64,000 nt of DNA from an uncultured Desulfospira sp. (GCA_963663165.1 OY760175.1:1888001-1952000), one strand, 5' to 3'; counted from the stretch's first letter, positions 13,469-23,685 are shown. The notes: a model not told the origin generated them from the letters alone. A program made the numbers and translations.

Positions 13469-14966
13469 CAATGTCATTAACTTAAGAAGATTTTGTGTTT
13501 AACTTGCTGATATTAATGATAAAATCATTGAAAAAATGAAATCGACATGATATACTCAATTCTAATAATAACAGCCAATTATCATAAAAAAAGGAGCATA
13601 TCATGTCGAAATTTGATAACAATTTTACACCGGTTGGCACGGAACCTGCTTTCCAATATATGTGCCAAACTAATTGATTTTCTTAAAAAAAATATCAATT
13701 CTTCAAATTTTATCAATCAACACCGCCAAAGTCCAAAAAATTTCACCCGTAACAGAAAACTGTCCTTTTCAATACTTATATTTTTCCTGATGAATTTGGT
13801 CAAGGGTTCATATCAGGATGAACTCGACCATTTCTTTAAAGCCATATTCGGGTTTGATGTTATAAGGCGATTTATCTCCAAGCCAGCCTTGACCAAAGCC
13901 AGGATGAAATTAAAATACGAGGCATTCTCCGAGCTTAATGATCAGCAGATAGATTTTTTCTATCAGAATTTTGCCCCCTTGAGATGGGAGGGTTTTAATC
14001 TGCTTGCTATAGACGGGTCGACAGCTCAACTGCCCCGGATTGAATCAATATTAAAACATTTTGGAGCATGGAATCCACGCCAGGGAGAAAAATGCCCCAT
14101 GGCCCGCATTTCTCAGATGTTCGATCCACTCAACAAAATAACTGTTGACGCTCAAATTGTCCCCAAAGAAACTGGAGAACGTGAACTGGCCGCCTTCCAT
14201 TGTTTAAAAATGGTACCAGGTGACCTTATACTTCTGGACAGGGGCTATCCAGCATATTGGCTGTTTAATCTCATTCTCAATCAAGGTGCCGATTTTTGCG
14301 CCCGGATTCAGCTAAAAAGATGGAAAATAGTCCGGCAATTTTATAATTCAGGCAAGAAGGAAAAAATCATATCTTTGACGCCATTCCCCAGTTCAATAAA
14401 ACAATGCAAAGAAATGGGGCTTGATTTAAAGCCATTAAAACTACGATTGATTCGGATTGAGTTAGAGACAGGCGAAGCTGAAATCCTCATTACATCCATC
14501 ATTGACAAACAAACCTTTACGCATAATCAGTTTTCTGAACTTTATCATTTGAGGTGGCCTGTAGAAGAAGACTACAAGACTATGAAACAATGGATAGAAA
14601 TAGAAAATTTCACCGGAAAATCAGTCCTGTCCGTTTACCAGGATTTCCATGCGAGAGTGTTCTCAAAGAATCTGACATCAATATTAGCTTTTCCCACTCA
14701 GACCATTATTGACAAAAATACTGAGGATCGGATGTATAAATATAAGCCGAATTTTGCACAGGCTTTATCAAAAATGAAGGACGTTCTTCCGCTATTGTTC
14801 GTTCGCTCAGGTGAAAAGGTTGTTGAGTTGATATCAGCTATACAAGACATTATTGTCAGGACTATAGAACCGGTAAGACCGGGCAGAAAATTTCCAAGGA
14901 ATTTCAATAATCGAAGCGGTCGTTTCCATTGCTGTTATAAACCACTTCGTTAAGTTAATGACATTG
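13469..14966 (+). mobile_element. IS4-family element (1498 bp), copy 1
   Basis: IRs CAATGTCATTAACTTAA; 10-bp TSD GGATATTATC. Confidence 0.93.
13547..14953 (+). CDS. IS4-family transposase
   Basis: LAIDGS, LLDRGY, LYHLRWPVEEDYKTMK (YREK motif); true start uncertain. Confidence 0.9.
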   Translation: MIYSILIITANYHKKRSISCRNLITILHRLARNLLSNICAKLIDFLKKNINSSNFINQHRQSPKNFTRNRKLSFSILIFFLMNLVKGSYQDELDHFFKAIFGFDVIRRFISKPALTKARMKLKYEAFSELNDQQIDFFYQNFAPLRWEGFNLLAIDGSTAQLPRIESILKHFGAWNPRQGEKCPMARISQMFDPLNKITVDAQIVPKETGERELAAFHCLKMVPGDLILLDRGYPAYWLFNLILNQGADFCARIQLKRWKIVRQFYNSGKKEKIISLTPFPSSIKQCKEMGLDLKPLKLRLIRIELETGEAEILITSIIDKQTFTHNQFSELYHLRWPVEEDYKTMKQWIEIENFTGKSVLSVYQDFHARVFSKNLTSILAFPTQTIIDKNTEDRMYKYKPNFAQALSKMKDVLPLLFVRSGEKVVELISAIQDIIVRTIEPVRPGRKFPRNFNNRSGRFHCCYKPLR

Positions 14967-15870: not shown

Positions 15871-16104
15871 GGGATGTGGTAAAATTAAAACCCACAATTC
15901 ATTCCTCATAGCATGGAATATCAACAGCCCATTTTTCAATCCCTGGAATCCGAATAATTTTGTTTTCTATATTATTCACGGCGGACTTGACCAAACGTAC
16001 CCCTGTCGGGTAAACACCTTTGATTAATGAGAGCAATCACGATAATTCATGGACAACGTTTCATGGTAAATAAGGGCTTTCCCGGAGGCCAAGAGAGCCC
16101 GATT

Positions 16105-16893
16105 TTAACTGATAATTTTTTCAGCTTTTTGTAATGTCCTGATCAGATACTGTGTTTTTTTTCGTTCATCCGCATGATTAATCCAATCCTGCCTTTCATT
16201 GATAATGCGATTGTAAATTTCCATTCGTGAAAAACCTCTTCTATAGAGGGCCAGAGCATATGCAAAATCAGTGGCAGATTCGTCACCCTTATCATAGAGG
16301 GAGCGGGAAATATTACCGTTATGGCACACTCCCCCCCGGGGTTGATGGGAAAAGACTTCTTGAGGTCGGGAGGATAATTCTATTTCAGGGACAATAGCCT
16401 GGCATTTCCAGTCCACCCATAATAGCTTTGCCAAAGGGTATTGTCCTGAAGGCGTTCTATGTTTTGCTTTTCTGTTCCTGAACCCGGGGCATCTGCCCCA
16501 CCTGTTTTTCGGGTCGGCGCCGGGATCACTGTGCATGTTTTCCAACCAATACTTTTTTTCGGGAAGGCTTAACGGACGGTCACTGTGAATCCAAATTTGA
16601 TAATTGCCGGGAGATGTTTCCATAACCATCCTGCCTGGTTTAAAGCGGTTTGATATGGATTGATGATGCCGGATAAGCAGGTCAATGTTTAAATCGTCGG
16701 CAAGAAAATAATAAGGCTCAATAACAGGATCAGGTCTGATCAGGATGTGCCTTCCTCCGGCATTTTCAGCTTTAAGATAAGGGATGTTTTTACAAGAGGG
16801 GAGAACGGGCCACCGGCCCTTAATTTCATCAAGAACTGCCAGGCTGAAGCGGTGCTTAAAATAATTGCCGATTTTCCATAGTATTTTTTCCAT
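16105..16893 (-). CDS. RepB'-like (AEP superfamily) DNA primase-domain protein
   Basis: YFLADDL, VMETSPGNYQIWI, SDPGA...WGRCPGFRNRK, and C-terminal DESATDFAYALALYRRG helices. Confidence 0.8.
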   Translation of the reverse strand: MEKILWKIGNYFKHRFSLAVLDEIKGRWPVLPSCKNIPYLKAENAGGRHILIRPDPVIEPYYFLADDLNIDLLIRHHQSISNRFKPGRMVMETSPGNYQIWIHSDRPLSLPEKKYWLENMHSDPGADPKNRWGRCPGFRNRKAKHRTPSGQYPLAKLLWVDWKCQAIVPEIELSSRPQEVFSHQPRGGVCHNGNISRSLYDKGDESATDFAYALALYRRGFSRMEIYNRIINERQDWINHADERKKTQYLIRTLQKAEKIIS

Positions 16894-16930
16894 TGAGGCA
16901 GGCCCGGACCTTTAGAGTCCGGGCGTACGT

Positions 16931-17113
16931 TTAAAACGGCTCGTGTTCTTTATGACGGTTCTTTTCCGTGAGCCTTTGTTTCTGGAATTGCCTGAAGGCC
17001 CGATATTCCATATTCAAGTTTTCAAGTCCGGCAAGGACCATATCCAGGATAAAATGTTCCAATTCCTGTGTAATTTCTTCCAGTTTCATGTCCGGATCAT
17101 CATAAATACCCAT
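16931..17113 (-). CDS. Small hypothetical protein (60 aa)
   Basis: AGGAG RBS; sits in an operon position between the ATPase and the primase. Confidence 0.6.
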   Translation of the reverse strand: MGIYDDPDMKLEEITQELEHFILDMVLAGLENLNMEYRAFRQFQKQRLTEKNRHKEHEPF

Positions 17114-17122
17114 ATTGTTCTC

Positions 17123-17950
17123 CTATGATTTTTTATTGGGCGGCTGTCTGGAATAGACTTCCATAAAAAGTTTTTCGTCCAATTGATTGAGTTCTTTCTC
17201 AATCCCCGCAGCCAGCAGGTCTGCGGCCATACTGTTAAGAACCCGCAGGTTGCCGGCGCAATGGTCTGCAAGGGTCCTGATCAGAGTTTTCGTCATTAAG
17301 TGCGGGGCGCCGGCCTGGTTCAGGCTGTGATCCATGTAATCCAGCAGGTCATCCCGGACATAGGGAAGCAGCGTCAACCGGAACTGCATCCGGCTTCCCA
17401 GCGATACCAGGGATCTTGATCTGAACCGTTCCGGGAGCCGGTCATCGCCGCAAATCACGGTGGTCAACAGGTTTTGGGAGTCAAAGTCCGCGCTGTTCAA
17501 CAAACGCAGTTCATTTAAGCATCCGGTCAGCATCTCCTGGGCTTCATCTATGAGCAGGATGGGCCGGAACAAGGTGGTTTTTACATGATGCCTCCAGCGC
17601 TCCCGAAGATCCTTGAACCCGCCATACCGGTTGGCAGGGCTTAAATTGACACCAAACAAAACTCCCATTTCCCGGTAAAAGTCTCCGACACTGCTTTGGG
17701 GACGTTCCATTACCCCGACAACTACCTCGTCAAGTTTACCGAACTTTTGGGCAATCATCTGCAACGCCTTGGATTTGCCAAGGCCAGGGTCCCCGCTGAT
17801 CAAAGCAAAGCCCCCGTTCAGGGTCATATTCTCAAGACGAAAAATAAAACTGTTCATCAATGGCGGATGCCATAAAGCCTCCACGGGGATATTGGACAAA
17901 AAAGGATTCCATTTAAGGCCGTAATAAGCCAGAAGCTGTTTGTTGTTCAT
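17123..17950 (-). CDS. ExeA-like AAA+ ATPase (transposition helper)
   Basis: YYGLKWNPF, Walker A GDPGLGKS, Walker B LLIDEAQ. Confidence 0.9.
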   Translation of the reverse strand: MNNKQLLAYYGLKWNPFLSNIPVEALWHPPLMNSFIFRLENMTLNGGFALISGDPGLGKSKALQMIAQKFGKLDEVVVGVMERPQSSVGDFYREMGVLFGVNLSPANRYGGFKDLRERWRHHVKTTLFRPILLIDEAQEMLTGCLNELRLLNSADFDSQNLLTTVICGDDRLPERFRSRSLVSLGSRMQFRLTLLPYVRDDLLDYMDHSLNQAGAPHLMTKTLIRTLADHCAGNLRVLNSMAADLLAAGIEKELNQLDEKLFMEVYSRQPPNKKS

Positions 17951-19392
17951 GATTCTCCTTTGGGCAGATAGGCTGGGGGCATGCCGCTTTGGGCATACTC
18001 GGCCATCAGTTTTCTTAATAATGCAGGCTCGGATTCTTTCAATGTTTCATCCGGTAGAATGGTATGTTCAGGTCTCGACTTGATCTTTCGTTTTCCTGAA
18101 GCATTTTTGATTTTGTCTTGGGGGTAGATCGGCGCAATCTGTTTGCCGGTTCTCTGGTCCATGAGCCAGGCCATGGATTTATCCCAATTGGCAAAGCAGA
18201 CATGTAACCGAGGGATATGGTGAAACCGGGAAGGGATCTCAAATCTTACCCCGTTGATGGACACGGTACCGTCAGACTTGCGCTGATTTCTGACTTCGCA
18301 AACTGTAAAGGCGAAACGTAATTGTTCTTCATCCGGTGCCGGCCGGGAAACATCTTTGCCTTCAAGCATGCGTTGAACAGGAGATGTGCCGATGTCACTA
18401 TGCCTGGTTTTGTTATATTCCATCTCGACCCAAGCCTGACTGCGGTGATTGAGATATTCCAGTGTCAGAGGGTCCACCCGGGTCAGCATGGCCATCAATC
18501 TGCCTTCAAGGGTGCCCCAAAAGGCTTCCTGCTTACCGTTTTGATAAGGGCTGTAGGGCAATGTCGTTTCATGAAGTATCCCTGTTTTCTTAAGCCCGTT
18601 GCAAAACTCATGGGAGGTCATGGCAGATCCGTTGTCCGTCATCAGTGCCCTGGGAAGCCCCCTTTTGAAAAAGGCCTGGGTCAATCCATGAATCAAATCC
18701 TGGGTGGTTTCTCCTGAATACCATTGGATGTGGCAGCACAGGCGGGAGTGGTCGTCAAGAATACATAAGGCTTTGGGCGTATACCAGTTACCGTTGTTAT
18801 CCACCACCCGCAGACTGCCTTCATGAAAATCCAGATGCCACAGGCTGTGAACACATTCTGCTTCATATCCACGGATCTCATGGCTTTCGAACCGCGTTGC
18901 GGCAGTTTTCATGCCCGCTGTCTGTTTTTTCTTGGCTGAGGGTTTCCTGGTCCACCCTCTTTCGACCATCCGCCGCCGGACACTGGCATAGGATGGTATC
19001 GATACTGAATTGGCTTTTTCTTGAAGTTCTGCTGCGAAATTATCTGCGTGCAGTTTGTAGCTCCAGTTCGGATAGGTCCGGTATTGTCTGCCCAGCATCC
19101 GGATCAGTTCAGGCGTGAATACAATTGAACCGCCATAGTCTGAACGAACTTTCCGTCCTAAAGCAATGATGGGGTCCTGGGCATTTTTTGCCTTGTAATA
19201 CCAGCTTTCAATAGTTGAAAAATGAAATACCGTCGATTCGTTCGTGATGGGATGGGTGTAAATCTGATTGGAAAGCTTTTCCAGTTCCTTACGCAGCTCA
19301 CCCTTGGCCGGCGGATTTGCCAGCAAACCACCAACGACTGAGAAGCGAAACAAAGCCCATTTATCAACCGGACTTTGGTTTTTACTGTTCAT
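17947..19392 (-). CDS. DDE (rve, Mu-like C-terminus) transposase
   Basis: WHLDFH / MTDNGS / NGKQEAFW triad, YNKTRHS, RKSDGTVSING; likely start MNSKNQ. Confidence 0.9.
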   Translation of the reverse strand: MNSKNQSPVDKWALFRFSVVGGLLANPPAKGELRKELEKLSNQIYTHPITNESTVFHFSTIESWYYKAKNAQDPIIALGRKVRSDYGGSIVFTPELIRMLGRQYRTYPNWSYKLHADNFAAELQEKANSVSIPSYASVRRRMVERGWTRKPSAKKKQTAGMKTAATRFESHEIRGYEAECVHSLWHLDFHEGSLRVVDNNGNWYTPKALCILDDHSRLCCHIQWYSGETTQDLIHGLTQAFFKRGLPRALMTDNGSAMTSHEFCNGLKKTGILHETTLPYSPYQNGKQEAFWGTLEGRLMAMLTRVDPLTLEYLNHRSQAWVEMEYNKTRHSDIGTSPVQRMLEGKDVSRPAPDEEQLRFAFTVCEVRNQRKSDGTVSINGVRFEIPSRFHHIPRLHVCFANWDKSMAWLMDQRTGKQIAPIYPQDKIKNASGKRKIKSRPEHTILPDETLKESEPALLRKLMAEYAQSGMPPAYLPKGES

Positions 19393-19507
19393 AGGCCGGG
19401 GTCCTTTCAATTTTAAGTTAAAATTTTCAGCGGAATGCTGATAAAAATCCCGGCCCCTTTGATAGAACAGTTGATCGCCCAAGGCCACGCCCATCTTCTG
19501 CGTGAGA

Positions 19508-20095
19508 TTACCCGGCCCTTATTTTTTGTGATATTTCATTGCCTTGAGACAAGAATGACAAACAGGAGATCAACGTTTCTTTGATGGATGCCTGTTGATG
19601 CAGATAGAAGTTGACCAAACTTGCCGGAAGACTGTCATTTTTCACGCTTGCAGGCACTCGGCCCCGGATTTTCTTCCATTGAGCGCTTGTTGGAAATATT
19701 TCTTTAAACAAACCGACCCAGCGTCTAAGGGTGTTGCGGGAGATACCGATTGTTTCAGCAAACCTGGACATCGTGATACCTACAGATTGGTTCTGCCAGT
19801 CGGACACAATCGTCAGAATGGCCGCATACCAGTAAATGTTTTTACCAAGGAAACGGCAGGTTGGCGGGATCAAACGCCGTCGGCAGCCTTCCCTTCCGCA
19901 GCATAAACTGAATTGTAAAAAACATTCTTCAGACAACCCTTCAGGCTCCCCCCTGGGTTTGCGCAGATAATTGGCATAATACAACGGTCCCTGGCAGTGG
20001 GGGCACTTCATCTGTCTATAACGTTCGGCTGTTGCCAGATCTATTTTGTATAGATTCCAAAAAAGACTTTCGCTTTTTAGAACTTCTGATAGCAT
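19508..20095 (-). CDS. Zn-ribbon + HTH protein (DUF6431-like transposon accessory)
   Basis: CPHCQGPL, CCGREGCRRR, ISRNTLRRW. Confidence 0.72.
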   Translation of the reverse strand: MLSEVLKSESLFWNLYKIDLATAERYRQMKCPHCQGPLYYANYLRKPRGEPEGLSEECFLQFSLCCGREGCRRRLIPPTCRFLGKNIYWYAAILTIVSDWQNQSVGITMSRFAETIGISRNTLRRWVGLFKEIFPTSAQWKKIRGRVPASVKNDSLPASLVNFYLHQQASIKETLISCLSFLSQGNEISQKIRAG

Positions 20096-21462
20096 ATCTC
20101 CTGCCCTGTTATTGGGTGGGGAGGCAGGAGTTTCACGATTATTTGCGAGATAAACAAGGGAACTTCTGCCTCAAACCTGACATATCTTGCAAATTATCTT
20201 CAATTTTTCCATGATTTTCTGTGACCATTCTCAATTAATTTGACGACAGGATTTTCTCCTTTCCATGTCATTGTTCGACATAGACCGAGAACCTTTTCAA
20301 TTTTGTTCAGCAATTCGCCTTTCCAATGATTTTCCAAAACACCCCAAACTCGCTCTATTGGGTTGTATTTACTGTGGTACGGGGGATAGTACACCAAACT
20401 AATATTTACAAATGCTGATTTGGCAAAGTCCACGAGGCGACTAATGAATTGGCTCCTTCGGCTACTATTTTCCGGCCCATTATCAAGATTGATCACCAGT
20501 GTATGTGGGGCGAATCTTGCGTTCAAAGAAGGCCAGAGTGATTCCAGCGCATCAATCATGAAATCAGAGGTGATGTTGCTTTCAGTGAAGTACATATAAT
20601 TTTCATCCAGAGCAGGTATGTTGATACCGAAAAGTTTCAAAAGGGAATCGGGTTTAAAATCATGGTCCGCCGCTTTAAGATTGCAACGACTATATCCGCC
20701 TCGGGAATAAGGCCCTATTTTAATAGTGGCTTTTGCGTCCATTGAGATACGTAAAACGCCATCTGTTTCATCGGCTAGTTGGTTTGTCCTATGCACATAT
20801 TCAAAAATGATGTCTGTTTCAGGAATTTTTTTTTTACCTTGGCTTTGGCGACCTTCTTCAGTTTAAAACCCAATTTATTCATTATGGTGGATAGAGTCCG
20901 TACTGTTGGCATATTCTCAGGGTCATATCCCATGTCGTCAACTAATCGACGGAATACTTCATTCGCAGATATTGGGGAATATAAATTCTGGGTACGGAAT
21001 GTAGGATCAGTCTGACATATAGGGTTTACAATACGAGTTATGTCCTCTTTTAAATTCGGAAAATGTTCTAAACACGATTTCCGGCCTCGTCCGGAAAAAT
21101 TATCAACACAGGTAACTCCGCTTTCTATTTCCCGTCGCCCTTTGATTATTGTTTTCCGATCCCAACCCAGTTCTCTTTCAGCCTTTAGTTGTCCGCCGTG
21201 CCCCATAAGGGAGACAACGCGTGCCATGAATTGGCGCCGTTCATGGCCTTTTAATTTGCTTCGAGTGGTATTCAGAAAATCCTTTAGTGGTGGCGTTAAT
21301 TCCGATATAGTTTTGGGTAAATTGTGCTTAGAATGATCAAACATGGTCCTCCTGTATTTTTTATGTAATCTTCCATGTTGACCATAAACTATCGATTCCA
21401 TGTTGTCTATAGAAATTAGAATTCAGACTATGGAATTGTGGATATTAATTTTTCTGAGGCCC

Positions 21463-21843: not shown

Positions 21844-21971
21844 AAAGAACGACAAGCTCAGCCGACCGGGGGTAAATCGCCGAGTACGTTGTAAAAGCAA
21901 AATCCTTTCATAAATCAAGGCCTTTTAAAAGTCGCTAAGCCCCCCGGGTCGGCTGGAGCGGCTTGTTCGAC
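21844..21971 (-). repeat. attC site 7
   Basis: R'' GTCGAAC ... R' GTTCTTT; same subfamily as attC 9 and 10. Confidence 0.9.
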
Positions 21972-23540
21972 GCTTTCCAAAACATCCTTTGTAAGAATAA
22001 TGCGCCGAATACTTCTCTTATCATCAAAGGGGACAATCATATCTCTACCTTGCTCTTCATTTATAAATTTGAGGTCTATATCTGGTTCTTTTGATGTCCC
22101 CATAAGATCAACGTATGTTCCATAATCTAAATTATAAATATTATATCTTACACCTGGATTATCTTTATCTGCGTATCCTCTTTGCATATGATGAATGACT
22201 CTCGCATCAAAAAGTTTTAAAATCATAAAATGTTTTTCAAGATCTCGTGGAAGAAGAAAAGAACGAGAGTTTTTATTTCCAATAACTTCTTCAATTATTT
22301 TTCTTAATGATGTTTGCATCGACTCATCAAGGTGTTGGGCTTTGTCTTGTTCGAACCATTGTCTTGATGATTCAAGAATTGATTTTTTGTCAATAGTTGA
22401 TCGTGACCGTTTTTGTGCATAAAAAAAAGAAATGGTGAAAATATTTATCAAATCTCGAATTACACCTTCGGCTGCTCTGCTTAATTCAAAAAATGTCTTT
22501 TTTTCTGTGAACATTTTTGACATAAAGTGAGAGCCCCCATTTATTTTGTAATTGTCATGAAGATAATTTTCTGGAAGCTCAATTTCCAAATGTCGCAGAA
22601 TGATATCACCATAAAAGTTTGAAATAACTTCAGGATTTCTATCATAGACATATATATCATCAAGATCTTGAGTCATTGATATATCTGCCCCTAACTCAAA
22701 ACCAATGATGTCATGTTCCCCAGTCAATGAAAATAATGATCTTTGTTCAAGAGCTGCAATTTTTAAGGTCGCATTTGTTACAGGAAGAAAGCCTCTTTTC
22801 AAAAATTCGGCGAGATATGGTTGTATATCCCTTGGCAAAGAAGACCACTCATCAAGAAGCACGACCAATTTAAAGCCTGAAAATTTTAGGGCTTCCGTTA
22901 GAAAATGATGAATAGCTGGAAATATAATTTTATCCTCTGTAGTCACAGAGATTTTTTTATTTTGTTGTATTGCCGACTTTGAACTTCCACTGAGATCAAA
23001 ACCACTTCTGAAGGAAGCTTTTGATAAATCAGAGAAAACGTTAACTCCAACATTGCCTTCTGATTCTTCTGACTTTGAGATTTCAAACTCTTTAGTCTCA
23101 AATACTTGAAATGGTTCAGTTATTGCCTTCATCAGTTCGTCAATTGCTTCAAGAGCTTTTTCACCGTCTTCGGGATAATATTCAATAATATCTTCCAGCA
23201 AGCGATTATAAATAGGCGACAAAATGTCACGAAACAAAGCAAGACAGCGACGGTTTATTGGCTGTTCCCTGTCTGTAAATTGAGAAGAACTCCCTAAAGT
23301 TCTGCAATCTATATAAATAACGCAATAATTTTCTTGTTCAAAATTGTTACGTAATACTTGAAATACGTGTGTTTTACCCGTTCCCCTTCTTCCGTATAAG
23401 ACTTGATGATTCTCATTATGTAATTGTGGAACAATTCCGGAATCAACATAAGATTCCAATAATTTTTGAAAATCAGATTGTCTTTCAGCACGCTGTCTAA
23501 TTCTTGAAACCGCTTTTGCAATTTCTCTATCTTGAATCAT
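21915..23540 (-). CDS. Large P-loop NTPase (ORC/CDC6- or STAND-like), cassette
   Basis: Walker A GRRGTGKT, Walker B VVLLDEW; likely start MIQDRE; reads into attC 7. Confidence 0.8.
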   Translation of the reverse strand: MIQDREIAKAVSRIRQRAERQSDFQKLLESYVDSGIVPQLHNENHQVLYGRRGTGKTHVFQVLRNNFEQENYCVIYIDCRTLGSSSQFTDREQPINRRCLALFRDILSPIYNRLLEDIIEYYPEDGEKALEAIDELMKAITEPFQVFETKEFEISKSEESEGNVGVNVFSDLSKASFRSGFDLSGSSKSAIQQNKKISVTTEDKIIFPAIHHFLTEALKFSGFKLVVLLDEWSSLPRDIQPYLAEFLKRGFLPVTNATLKIAALEQRSLFSLTGEHDIIGFELGADISMTQDLDDIYVYDRNPEVISNFYGDIILRHLEIELPENYLHDNYKINGGSHFMSKMFTEKKTFFELSRAAEGVIRDLINIFTISFFYAQKRSRSTIDKKSILESSRQWFEQDKAQHLDESMQTSLRKIIEEVIGNKNSRSFLLPRDLEKHFMILKLFDARVIHHMQRGYADKDNPGVRYNIYNLDYGTYVDLMGTSKEPDIDLKFINEEQGRDMIVPFDDKRSIRRIILTKDVLESVEQAAPADPGGLATFKRP

Positions 23541-23553
23541 ATTTTCCTTTGTT

Positions 23554-23685
23554 GTCGAACGGGGAGCTAACCGGCCGGGCGTTAACACCACAAAAGCTCC
23601 GGTAAAAGTTTAAAATTTCATTGACCAAGCACCTTCAAAAAAACCGCGCAGATAAGCCCGGTCGGGTTCAGCGGCTTTGTTATGC
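23554..23685 (-). repeat. attC site 8
   Basis: R'' GCATAAC ... R' GTTCGAC. Confidence 0.9.

Follow-up and report, generated by a model that had tools for sequence, protein, structure and literature searches.

Can a bacterial transposon of insertion-sequence (IS) size bring along its own enzyme for starting DNA synthesis? This question is raised by a 4206-bp element at positions 16028-20233 of a 64,000-nt stretch of DNA from an uncultured Desulfospira sp. (GCA_963663165.1 OY760175.1:1888001-1952000), hereafter the window. To our knowledge, the start of replicative or repair DNA synthesis at transposition intermediates is understood in detail only for phage Mu in E. coli, in which host restart proteins are responsible. 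The element is an autonomous and recently active member of the Tn6049 family; its core is Mu-like, and an intact RepB' primase gene moves along with it. On balance, the evidence described below somewhat favors a primase that works in the element's own DNA synthesis, while it transposes or shortly afterward.

An intact primase gene within exact ends

The last open reading frame (ORF) of the element (262 aa; 16105-16893, minus strand) contains the motifs VMETSPGNYQIW and RCPGFRNRK, from which the initial annotation had recognized a RepB'-type archaeo-eukaryotic primase (AEP). The profile and structure searches that it had proposed for this interval lead to the same family. Pfam PF16793 (RepB_primase) matches with 56.7 bits against a cut-off of 24.3 and PF22448 (RepB_primase_C) with 32 bits against 26.1, and the only sequence matches in the PDB are to RepB' of RSF1010 (3H25 and 3H20; E 1e-11). 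Residues D66, D67, D123, and R134 align with D77, D78, D134, and R145 of RepB' and are invariant in 32 homologues, and Q99, the motif II glutamine, is kept in at least 90%; the motifs (catalytic Asp, motif II Gln, motif IV Arg) are defined as in the accessible parts of two sources (PMC8567376, PMC5862659). According to excerpts of the former, aspartates 77, 78, and 134 of RepB' are catalytic, and the enzyme requires both of its domains, the helix bundle being needed for dinucleotide formation (PMC8567376). An AlphaFold2 (AF2) model of the window protein, with a predicted local distance difference test (pLDDT) of 83, matches 3H20 (E 3e-12); its catalytic domain matches 3H25_A with a template modeling (TM) score of 0.63, other PrimPols follow, and the helices of the C-terminal bundle are present (residues 197-261). 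Sequence and predicted fold identify the product of the last ORF as a true member of the RepB' family of AEP primases, with a full catalytic set and the helix bundle.

The boundaries of the element place this gene inside it. The element starts with TGAGAG and ends with CTCTCA (TG...CA), and an ATTAA direct repeat, read on either side at 16023-16027 and 20234-20238, forms the target-site duplication. The target was an IS of the ISAzo13 family, and the flanking ORFs match NCBIfam NF033519 (ISAzo13 transposase) as two halves. An 80-mer joining 40 nt of the left flank to 40 nt of the right flank through one ATTAA was found at 20 places in the genome of the window, all of them uninterrupted ISAzo13 copies; the ends and the 5-bp duplication are therefore exact, as the initial annotation had stated. 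Public contigs agree, with 16022 joined to 20234 and 4211 bases (4206 + 5) skipped in all four runs examined. The two 26-nt terminal inverted repeats agree at 18 positions. The primase-side repeat (16028-16053; TGAGAGCAATCACGATAATTCATGGA) is the same in all nine full-length copies shown, and the transposase-side repeat (20208-20233; reverse complement TGAGAATGGTCACAGAAAATCATGGA) was read directly and by copy comparison. A subterminal inverted repeat lies at 20132-20152 and 20183-20203, and the end motif ...ATTATCGTG...CTCTCA is kept among relatives of other phyla. Within these ends are the five co-oriented ORFs already described in the initial annotation (195, 515, 275, 60, and 262 aa, all on the minus strand). 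A promoter and terminator scan gave no more sites than shuffled sequence did.

The element has 17 matches in the 6.74-Mb genome. Nine are full-length copies, two represent one copy that spans the ends of the single contig, three are pieces of one split copy, and three are short and cover one end only, which gives 11 copies, 10 of them intact and one broken by two insertions of 1901 and 4063 bp. Recurrence of the whole 4206 bp is far beyond chance. In all 10 intact copies the primase gene lies inside the ends, as the initial annotation had suggested checking, and all five ORFs are uninterrupted. The gene keeps this position beyond this genome: a metagenome scan with the primase found six close loci with the same layout, and the gene lies within the ends in every closer relative whose contig extends far enough.

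The intact copies fall into three groups, comprising three identical copies (including that of the window), six identical copies that differ from the window group at 112 sites, and one mosaic (G000:C1:3867756-3871961). The mosaic is a clean B-A-B alternation of 57 B-type, 38 A-type, and 17 B-type diagnostic sites, which indicates that element copies recombine with one another. Between the two variants, the ratio of nonsynonymous to synonymous substitution rates (dN/dS) is 0.22 for the first gene, 0.13 for the transposase, 0.16 for the ATPase, 0.45 for the 60-aa ORF (from three differences), and 0.27 for the primase (from eight differences only). An alternative is that the primase ORF is decaying and is open merely owing to the youth of the copies. 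Since the 10 copies amount to two sequence variants and a mosaic, their intactness within the genome is weak evidence. However, in other genomes and metagenomes the primase orthologues (61-80% identity) have their full length, the catalytic residues do not vary, and 563 homologues are found at E ≤ 0.001, most of the 120 listed having both domains. Decay is thus very improbable.

Direct repeats flank all 11 copies, with lengths of 6, 5, 5, 3, 4, 6, 3, 5, 6, 5, and 5 bp. The 5-bp duplication of the initial annotation is correct for the window copy but is no general rule, and duplications of 3-6 bp, most commonly 5, also occur within one family at loci L062-L068 and L131-L133. Mu- and Tn7-like transposases make a fixed 5-bp duplication, and variable lengths are unusual for them. 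The three short genome matches are the ends of a 373-bp non-coding miniature inverted-repeat transposable element (MITE) with near-perfect inverted repeats of the same type. Its three copies (G000:C1:2726987-2727359, 4409221-4409593, and 5266572-5266944; L015-L017) are identical and carry a 5-bp duplication each. Over its first 41 nt it shares 85% identity with the element's primase-side end, and it is probably moved in trans by the element or a relative.

Two further observations concern the surroundings and the assembly. The element sits in a nest of mobile elements (13547-14953 and 15899-21401), where an IS4-family transposase gene adjoins the ISAzo13 copy that the element broke, and a 558-aa P-loop ATPase is encoded at 21915-23591 (minus strand), which weakly matches the Sll1717 family and models of anti-phage ATPases, in each case under the cut-off. 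The ends of the single contig (G000:C1 1-11 and 6741024-6741034) repeat the same 11 bases inside an element copy, most likely a circularization leftover of the assembly.

A Mu-like core with a variable fourth gene

The transposase is encoded by the longest ORF of the element (515 aa; 17947-19494, minus strand; Pfam rve, E 3e-13). Relatives are alignable only from about residue 30 on, and the true start is probably M35 at 19392. The catalytic triad D222, D287, and E323 is invariant in 19 relatives, whose profile finds TnsB of ShCAST, a CRISPR-associated transposon (CAST), as the best solved match (E 1.3e-7) and retroviral integrases next. The relatives' transposases also give weak Mu-transpos_C matches (E 0.017-0.064). 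The following gene, whose start codon region overlaps the transposase stop by 4 nt, encodes a 275-aa AAA+ ATPase (17123-17950, minus strand; Pfam AAA_22, E 1e-16) that is MuB/TnsC-like and is labeled ExeA- or GspA-like elsewhere. Its family profile matches the Mu "target DNA activator B" (PDB 8XVB) at E 4e-7 over positions 34-265 and ShCAST TnsC at 4.5e-3; the Pfam TniB model is matched at E 0.042 only. Neither Walker A (G53-S60) nor Walker B (D135, E136) varies among 19 relatives. Judging from these distant profile matches, the core is a TnsB/MuA-like DDE transposase with a MuB-like AAA+ ATPase.

The initial annotation had called this core IS21/Mu/Tn7-like. The Mu/Tn7 part of that description holds, given the TnsB and MuB profile matches; the IS21 part does not, as NF033546 scores 38 bits against a cut-off of 160 and the ATPase has no IstB_IS21 (PF01695) match. 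Membership in the IS481 family was likewise rejected, because the transposase reaches 106 bits against the NF033577 cut-off of 224 and IS481 elements have a single gene, whereas this one has five; IS481 is the label that PGAP gives to the Tn6049 transposase. No TnsA-like second nuclease, TniQ/TnsD, or resolvase, the features of Tn7 proper, Tn5053, and Tn552, was recognized among the five ORFs with Pfam and NCBIfam. The same models found no DNA polymerase domain in any ORF.

The first gene (19508-20095, minus strand) encodes a 195-aa Zn-ribbon and helix-turn-helix (HTH) protein that is present in nearly all relatives. Cysteines C34, C65, C66, and C71 are invariant, C31 is present by eye in most aligned rows, and the HTH spans about residues 104-131. 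The AF2 model has a pLDDT of 86. For this protein, a PDB profile search returned nothing below E 0.46 and Foldseek nothing below 0.46, VIA-align gave a best Z of 3.5, and neither profile nor fold matched TniQ. Between the ATPase and the primase is a 60-aa ORF (16931-17113, minus strand) with no Pfam or NCBIfam match. It is uninterrupted in all 10 intact copies and has counterparts of 39-65% identity in some relatives, with none in L058 and L073. An 80-aa ORF at the matching place of primase-less relatives has no BLASTP match to it, and the two share a residue pattern by eye only.

The initial annotation knew of no named family with this architecture, but the core does have a named relative. 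A tblastn search of plasmids with the transposase found copies of Tn6049 in Cupriavidus and on the Pseudomonas aeruginosa plasmid pHS87a, with 47% identity across 90% of the protein. In BLASTP comparisons with the pHS87a copy, the first ORF is 33% (E 3e-25), the transposase 47% (E 2e-150), and the ATPase 50% (E 2e-93) identical. The annotated gene order there is ORF1, DDE transposase, AAA ATPase, and a 90-aa ORF, after which no replication gene follows. In Cupriavidus metallidurans CH34, Tn6049 is described in the accessible text as a 3.5-kb element in 12 copies that always includes the "gspA" ATPase (PMC2864759), and excerpts of two other sources give it a 12-bp repeat with a 4-bp direct repeat (PMC4739549) and state that its transposition module "could not be categorized" (PMC6210171). 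No published mechanism for Tn6049 was found in the searched literature. A plasmid search with the element DNA gave no match, and one with the helicase protein described below gave no transposon-borne relative.

The gene that follows the ATPase, here called slot 4, was compared across the family. A scan with the transposase as query and one genome per species yielded 78 loci from many phyla, taken from the 80 nearest relatives of this one transposase and so not a random sample. The order of Zn/HTH, DDE, and ATPase genes is common to all of them save a few that are truncated. Three kinds of gene follow the ATPase, encoding a RepB_primase protein, a DnaG-type primase (CHC2 zinc ribbon and Toprim), or an AAA_25 ATPase with a winged helix. 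When the loci are grouped into 49 lineages at 90% transposase identity, slot 4 holds the AAA_25 gene in 21 lineages, RepB' in six, and the DnaG type in two; it is empty in seven (the element end being seen 300-630 nt after the ATPase), holds nothing recognized in three, and is cut by a contig end in 10. A replication gene thus occupies the slot in 29 of the 39 informative lineages. Where the gene is recognized, it is a replication enzyme in 29 of 29 lineages, drawn from three unrelated folds, and not the unrelated, variable cargo that the initial annotation had named as evidence against its own proposal.

The AAA_25 protein has a single sequence match in the PDB, the RSF1010 helicase RepA (E 2e-9). 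Some helicase carriers have an extra small gene with a DnaG-type CHC2 zinc ribbon only (L097:8248-8622, L095:8340-8681, and L129:2941-3255; Pfam E 3e-9 to 3e-11), which recalls the zinc-binding domain of primase-helicases. In four other multi-copy genomes, the shared unit runs from the TG end to the CTCA end and includes the helicase gene (4696, ~4560, 4167, and 4227 bp). Trees were made by a quick maximum-likelihood search, with support given by the Shimodaira-Hasegawa-like approximate likelihood ratio test (SH-aLRT) and no root inferred. In the transposase tree (55 sequences), one major clade contains the helicase carriers, with Tn6049 nested among them, and the other contains the primase carriers and the empty elements. 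The clade of the window's transposase (10 rows, 100 SH-aLRT) combines RepB' carriers with the primase-less L061 and L071, whose right ends lie 465-479 nt past the ATPase. In one Acidobacteriota metagenome-assembled genome (MAG), L088 and L090 are sister elements with RepB' and the DnaG-type primase, respectively (97 SH-aLRT). A remnant of the primase gene was sought in primase-less sister elements, and none was found.

That other replication enzymes occur in the same slot strengthens the idea of a replication role. It is plausible, although we put it forward tentatively, that the Tn6049 family has a dedicated and exchangeable "replication slot" for an AEP primase, a DnaG-type primase, or a RepA-like helicase, which would make its elements partly self-replicating.

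A credible but less probable alternative is that the primase is cargo acquired from a plasmid or an integrative element and takes no part in transposition chemistry. It might prime the complementary strand when the DNA that carries it enters a new cell as a single strand, or its function might be unrelated to the element. RepB' homologues of 46-55% identity do occur in other mobile settings, namely beside a tyrosine integrase, with SSB and RadC, with DUF5906 and HNH, and with ParB_N and an IstA-like DDE transposase. Primase-less relatives transpose, and IncQ plasmids also produce RepB' fused to the relaxase MobA. Relaxase fusions are also mentioned in the accessible part of an AEP survey (PMC5862659). 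However, transposon cargo is usually diverse, yet every recognized slot-4 gene is a replication enzyme, and the Pfam and NCBIfam scan of the five ORFs matched no relaxase or oriT-like gene. The association is also old and clade-wide. In the RepB' tree, the transposon-borne proteins of Desulfobacterales form one clade (93 SH-aLRT) apart from the RepB' proteins of other mobile elements, which indicates a long association of primase and element; the transposon-borne RepB' of Acidobacteriota is very distant.

Several loci found during these comparisons are recorded here in their own right. At L055 (G024:C272:1-4392, a 4.4-kb contig), a RepB' gene of 55% identity, a ParB_N-like gene, and an IstA-like transposase gene are arranged head to tail, and the locus may be a second, IS21-type transposon with a primase; in that genome, the arrangement was found on the single contig only. 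At L053 (G037:C3:5474500-5484500), a broken RepB' gene lies beside AAA_22 and Mu-transpos_C fragments with 24-35% identity to those of the window, seemingly the same layout in a more distant transposon lineage; the element family is decaying in this sister genus (G037). Two different MAG chromosomes (CP070694.1 and CP070697.1) contain 100% identical copies of a 3464-bp primase-less element (L084 and L085), a sign of recent transfer or of closely related populations. For the 281-aa ORF found in slot 4 of L078, Pfam gave no match and the Atlas lead was weak (0.87); this ORF may not be a gene. In a sample of 401 genomes of the phylum, matches were found in 10 genomes, the window's own included, with flanks too short to read slot 4.

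A proposed role for the primase in transposition

Elements of the Mu, Tn5053, and type V-K CAST kind cut 3' ends only and leave a branched strand-transfer intermediate, which then requires replication or repair. Mu needs PriA-dependent restart, and V-K CAST makes cointegrates. In the present element, for which no TnsA-like nuclease was recognized, 3'-only strand transfer would likewise produce a branched intermediate in need of replication or repair. The primase would start DNA synthesis on the exposed transposon strand, so that the 4.2-kb element could be copied without awaiting the host restart primosome. Such priming would be analogous to that by which RepB' enables plasmid replication in the leading-strand mode, and in sister lineages the DnaG-type primase or the RepA-like helicase would do the same job. 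RSF1010 is replicated in the leading-strand mode only, starting at two hairpin sites, according to the accessible text (PMC8567376). We infer that the primase is a helper that raises the efficiency or the host independence of transposition and is not essential, because primase-less relatives also multiply.

A candidate initiation site was considered in the region upstream of the primase gene. Comparison of folded upstream regions revealed a GC-rich hairpin with an 8-bp stem (16902-16924, minus strand) that ends 8 nt ahead of the primase ATG. All 11 of the transposon-linked RepB genes that were folded have a hairpin ending 6-10 nt before the primase start, and their stems comprise at least five sequences. 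Stem sequences differ among nine upstream regions, of which six are alignable; in these six, double compensatory changes affect four of 11 pairs, and G-U pairs fit only the sense strand. The hairpin is probably an operon terminator or attenuator rather than a primase site, because a similar hairpin with a T-run follows the small ORF in primase-less sister elements.

Several findings weigh against a role of the primase in the element's own DNA synthesis. Tn6049 reaches 12 copies without a replication gene, according to the accessible text (PMC2864759). A Desulfobacter MAG without any match to PF16793 contains at least 12 copies, flanked by duplications, of a 3542-bp primase-less sister element, and the 373-bp MITE with similar ends spread to three copies. 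All 11 copies of the element are simple insertions with matching duplications, which is not what intramolecular replicative transposition leaves, and no resolvase was recognized among the five ORFs. No RepB'-type initiation site (ssiA/ssiB) was found, the only conserved hairpin being the one shared with primase-less relatives, and a terminator-like hairpin before the gene means that the primase may be weakly expressed. Additionally, the primase dN/dS of 0.27 is based on just eight differences, and the slot-4 survey covers the 80 nearest relatives of one transposase.

The simple insertions also bear on a different use of the primase. The element might be excised or copied out as a circle that the primase or helicase allows to replicate like a plasmid for a time, providing more donors before reintegration. 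All 11 copies are of the kind that this would leave, RepB' and RepA are plasmid replication enzymes, and other integrative elements encode primase-helicase pairs. The best NCBIfam model for the transposase is also that of IS481, a family with copy-out-paste-in transposition through circles. However, the IS481 score is far under its cut-off, the MuB-like ATPase suggests target capture of the Mu type, and no RepC-like initiator or origin-like iterons were seen in the element. The lineages have a primase alone or a helicase alone and never the full set, and the public contigs, which could not reveal rare circle junctions, contain none. A replicating circle is therefore improbable. This alternative and that of a passenger primase keep some weight because of the simple insertions, the lack of a recognized resolvase, and the success of primase-less relatives. 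Priming of the element's own synthesis at the transposition intermediate is the reading that we favor.

Comparison with known systems

How DNA synthesis starts during transposition can be approached directly in a small transposon family whose members have unrelated primases or a helicase in one and the same slot. The widespread and unclassified Tn6049 family is now placed beside Mu and Tn7-like elements, and the settings of RepB'-type primases extend from plasmids and integrase-borne elements to DDE transposons. If the replication-slot reading is true, Mu-like bacterial DDE transposons would supply their own priming or unwinding step and depend less on the host restart primosome.

The closest named system is Tn6049, with which the element shares the order of a small Zn/HTH-type first ORF, DDE transposase, AAA ATPase, and small ORF, as well as imperfect TG...CA ends, short direct repeats, and many copies, as far as the excerpts describe them (PMC4739549, PMC2864759). 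Unlike Tn6049, which is 3.5 kb long and lacks a primase or helicase, the window element has 4206 bp and an added 262-aa primase, and its terminal repeat begins TGAGA... instead of TGTGC....

The primase resembles RSF1010 RepB' in its domain pair, fold, and catalytic residues, and the helicase of the sister transposons resembles RSF1010 RepA. In contrast to the IncQ plasmid, identity over the catalytic domain is about 28%, and the gene lies in a DDE transposon without RepC, oriV, or recognizable ssiA/ssiB. Each transposon lineage has one of the two RSF1010-type enzymes only.

Mu (MuA/MuB) and type V-K CAST (TnsB/TnsC) are the best solved relatives of the core, and they share with it the TG...CA ends, a modal 5-bp duplication, and the absence of a TnsA-type nuclease. 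The element differs from both in that the matches are weak (E ~1e-7), no TniQ/TnsD was recognized, the first gene is an unclassified Zn-ribbon/HTH gene, and the duplications vary from 3 to 6 bp. Mu and CAST are not known to encode a primase and depend on host replication.

Another link between AEPs and transposition is the IS excision enhancer (IEE), a host-encoded PrimPol-helicase that acts on copy-out-paste-in insertion sequences, as described in the accessible text (bioRxiv 10.1101/2023.06.07.543989). Like IEE, the primase of the element would be an AEP-family enzyme with a functional tie to DDE transposition. Unlike IEE, which according to the same text is encoded outside the IS, fused to a helicase, and promotes IS loss, the primase here is part of the element. 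The accessible part of an AEP survey includes 11 RepB' members, on plasmids or fused to relaxases, and assigns bacterial AEPs to elements that have tyrosine or serine recombinases (PMC5862659). A literature search, outside which lay ISfinder, TnCentral, and supplementary tables, turned up no account of a primase encoded by a DDE transposon.

Mobile elements with their own replication enzymes include casposons, Polintons, and the primase-helicase carriers of the SCCmec type. The self-synthesizing transposons and SCCmec combine Cas1, retroviral-type, or serine recombinases with a DNA polymerase or an MCM-like helicase, whereas the window element is of IS size, has a bacterial Mu-like DDE transposase, and lacks a polymerase. 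If the replication-slot reading is true, the family would represent, among bacteria and at IS size, the counterpart to self-synthesizing transposons.

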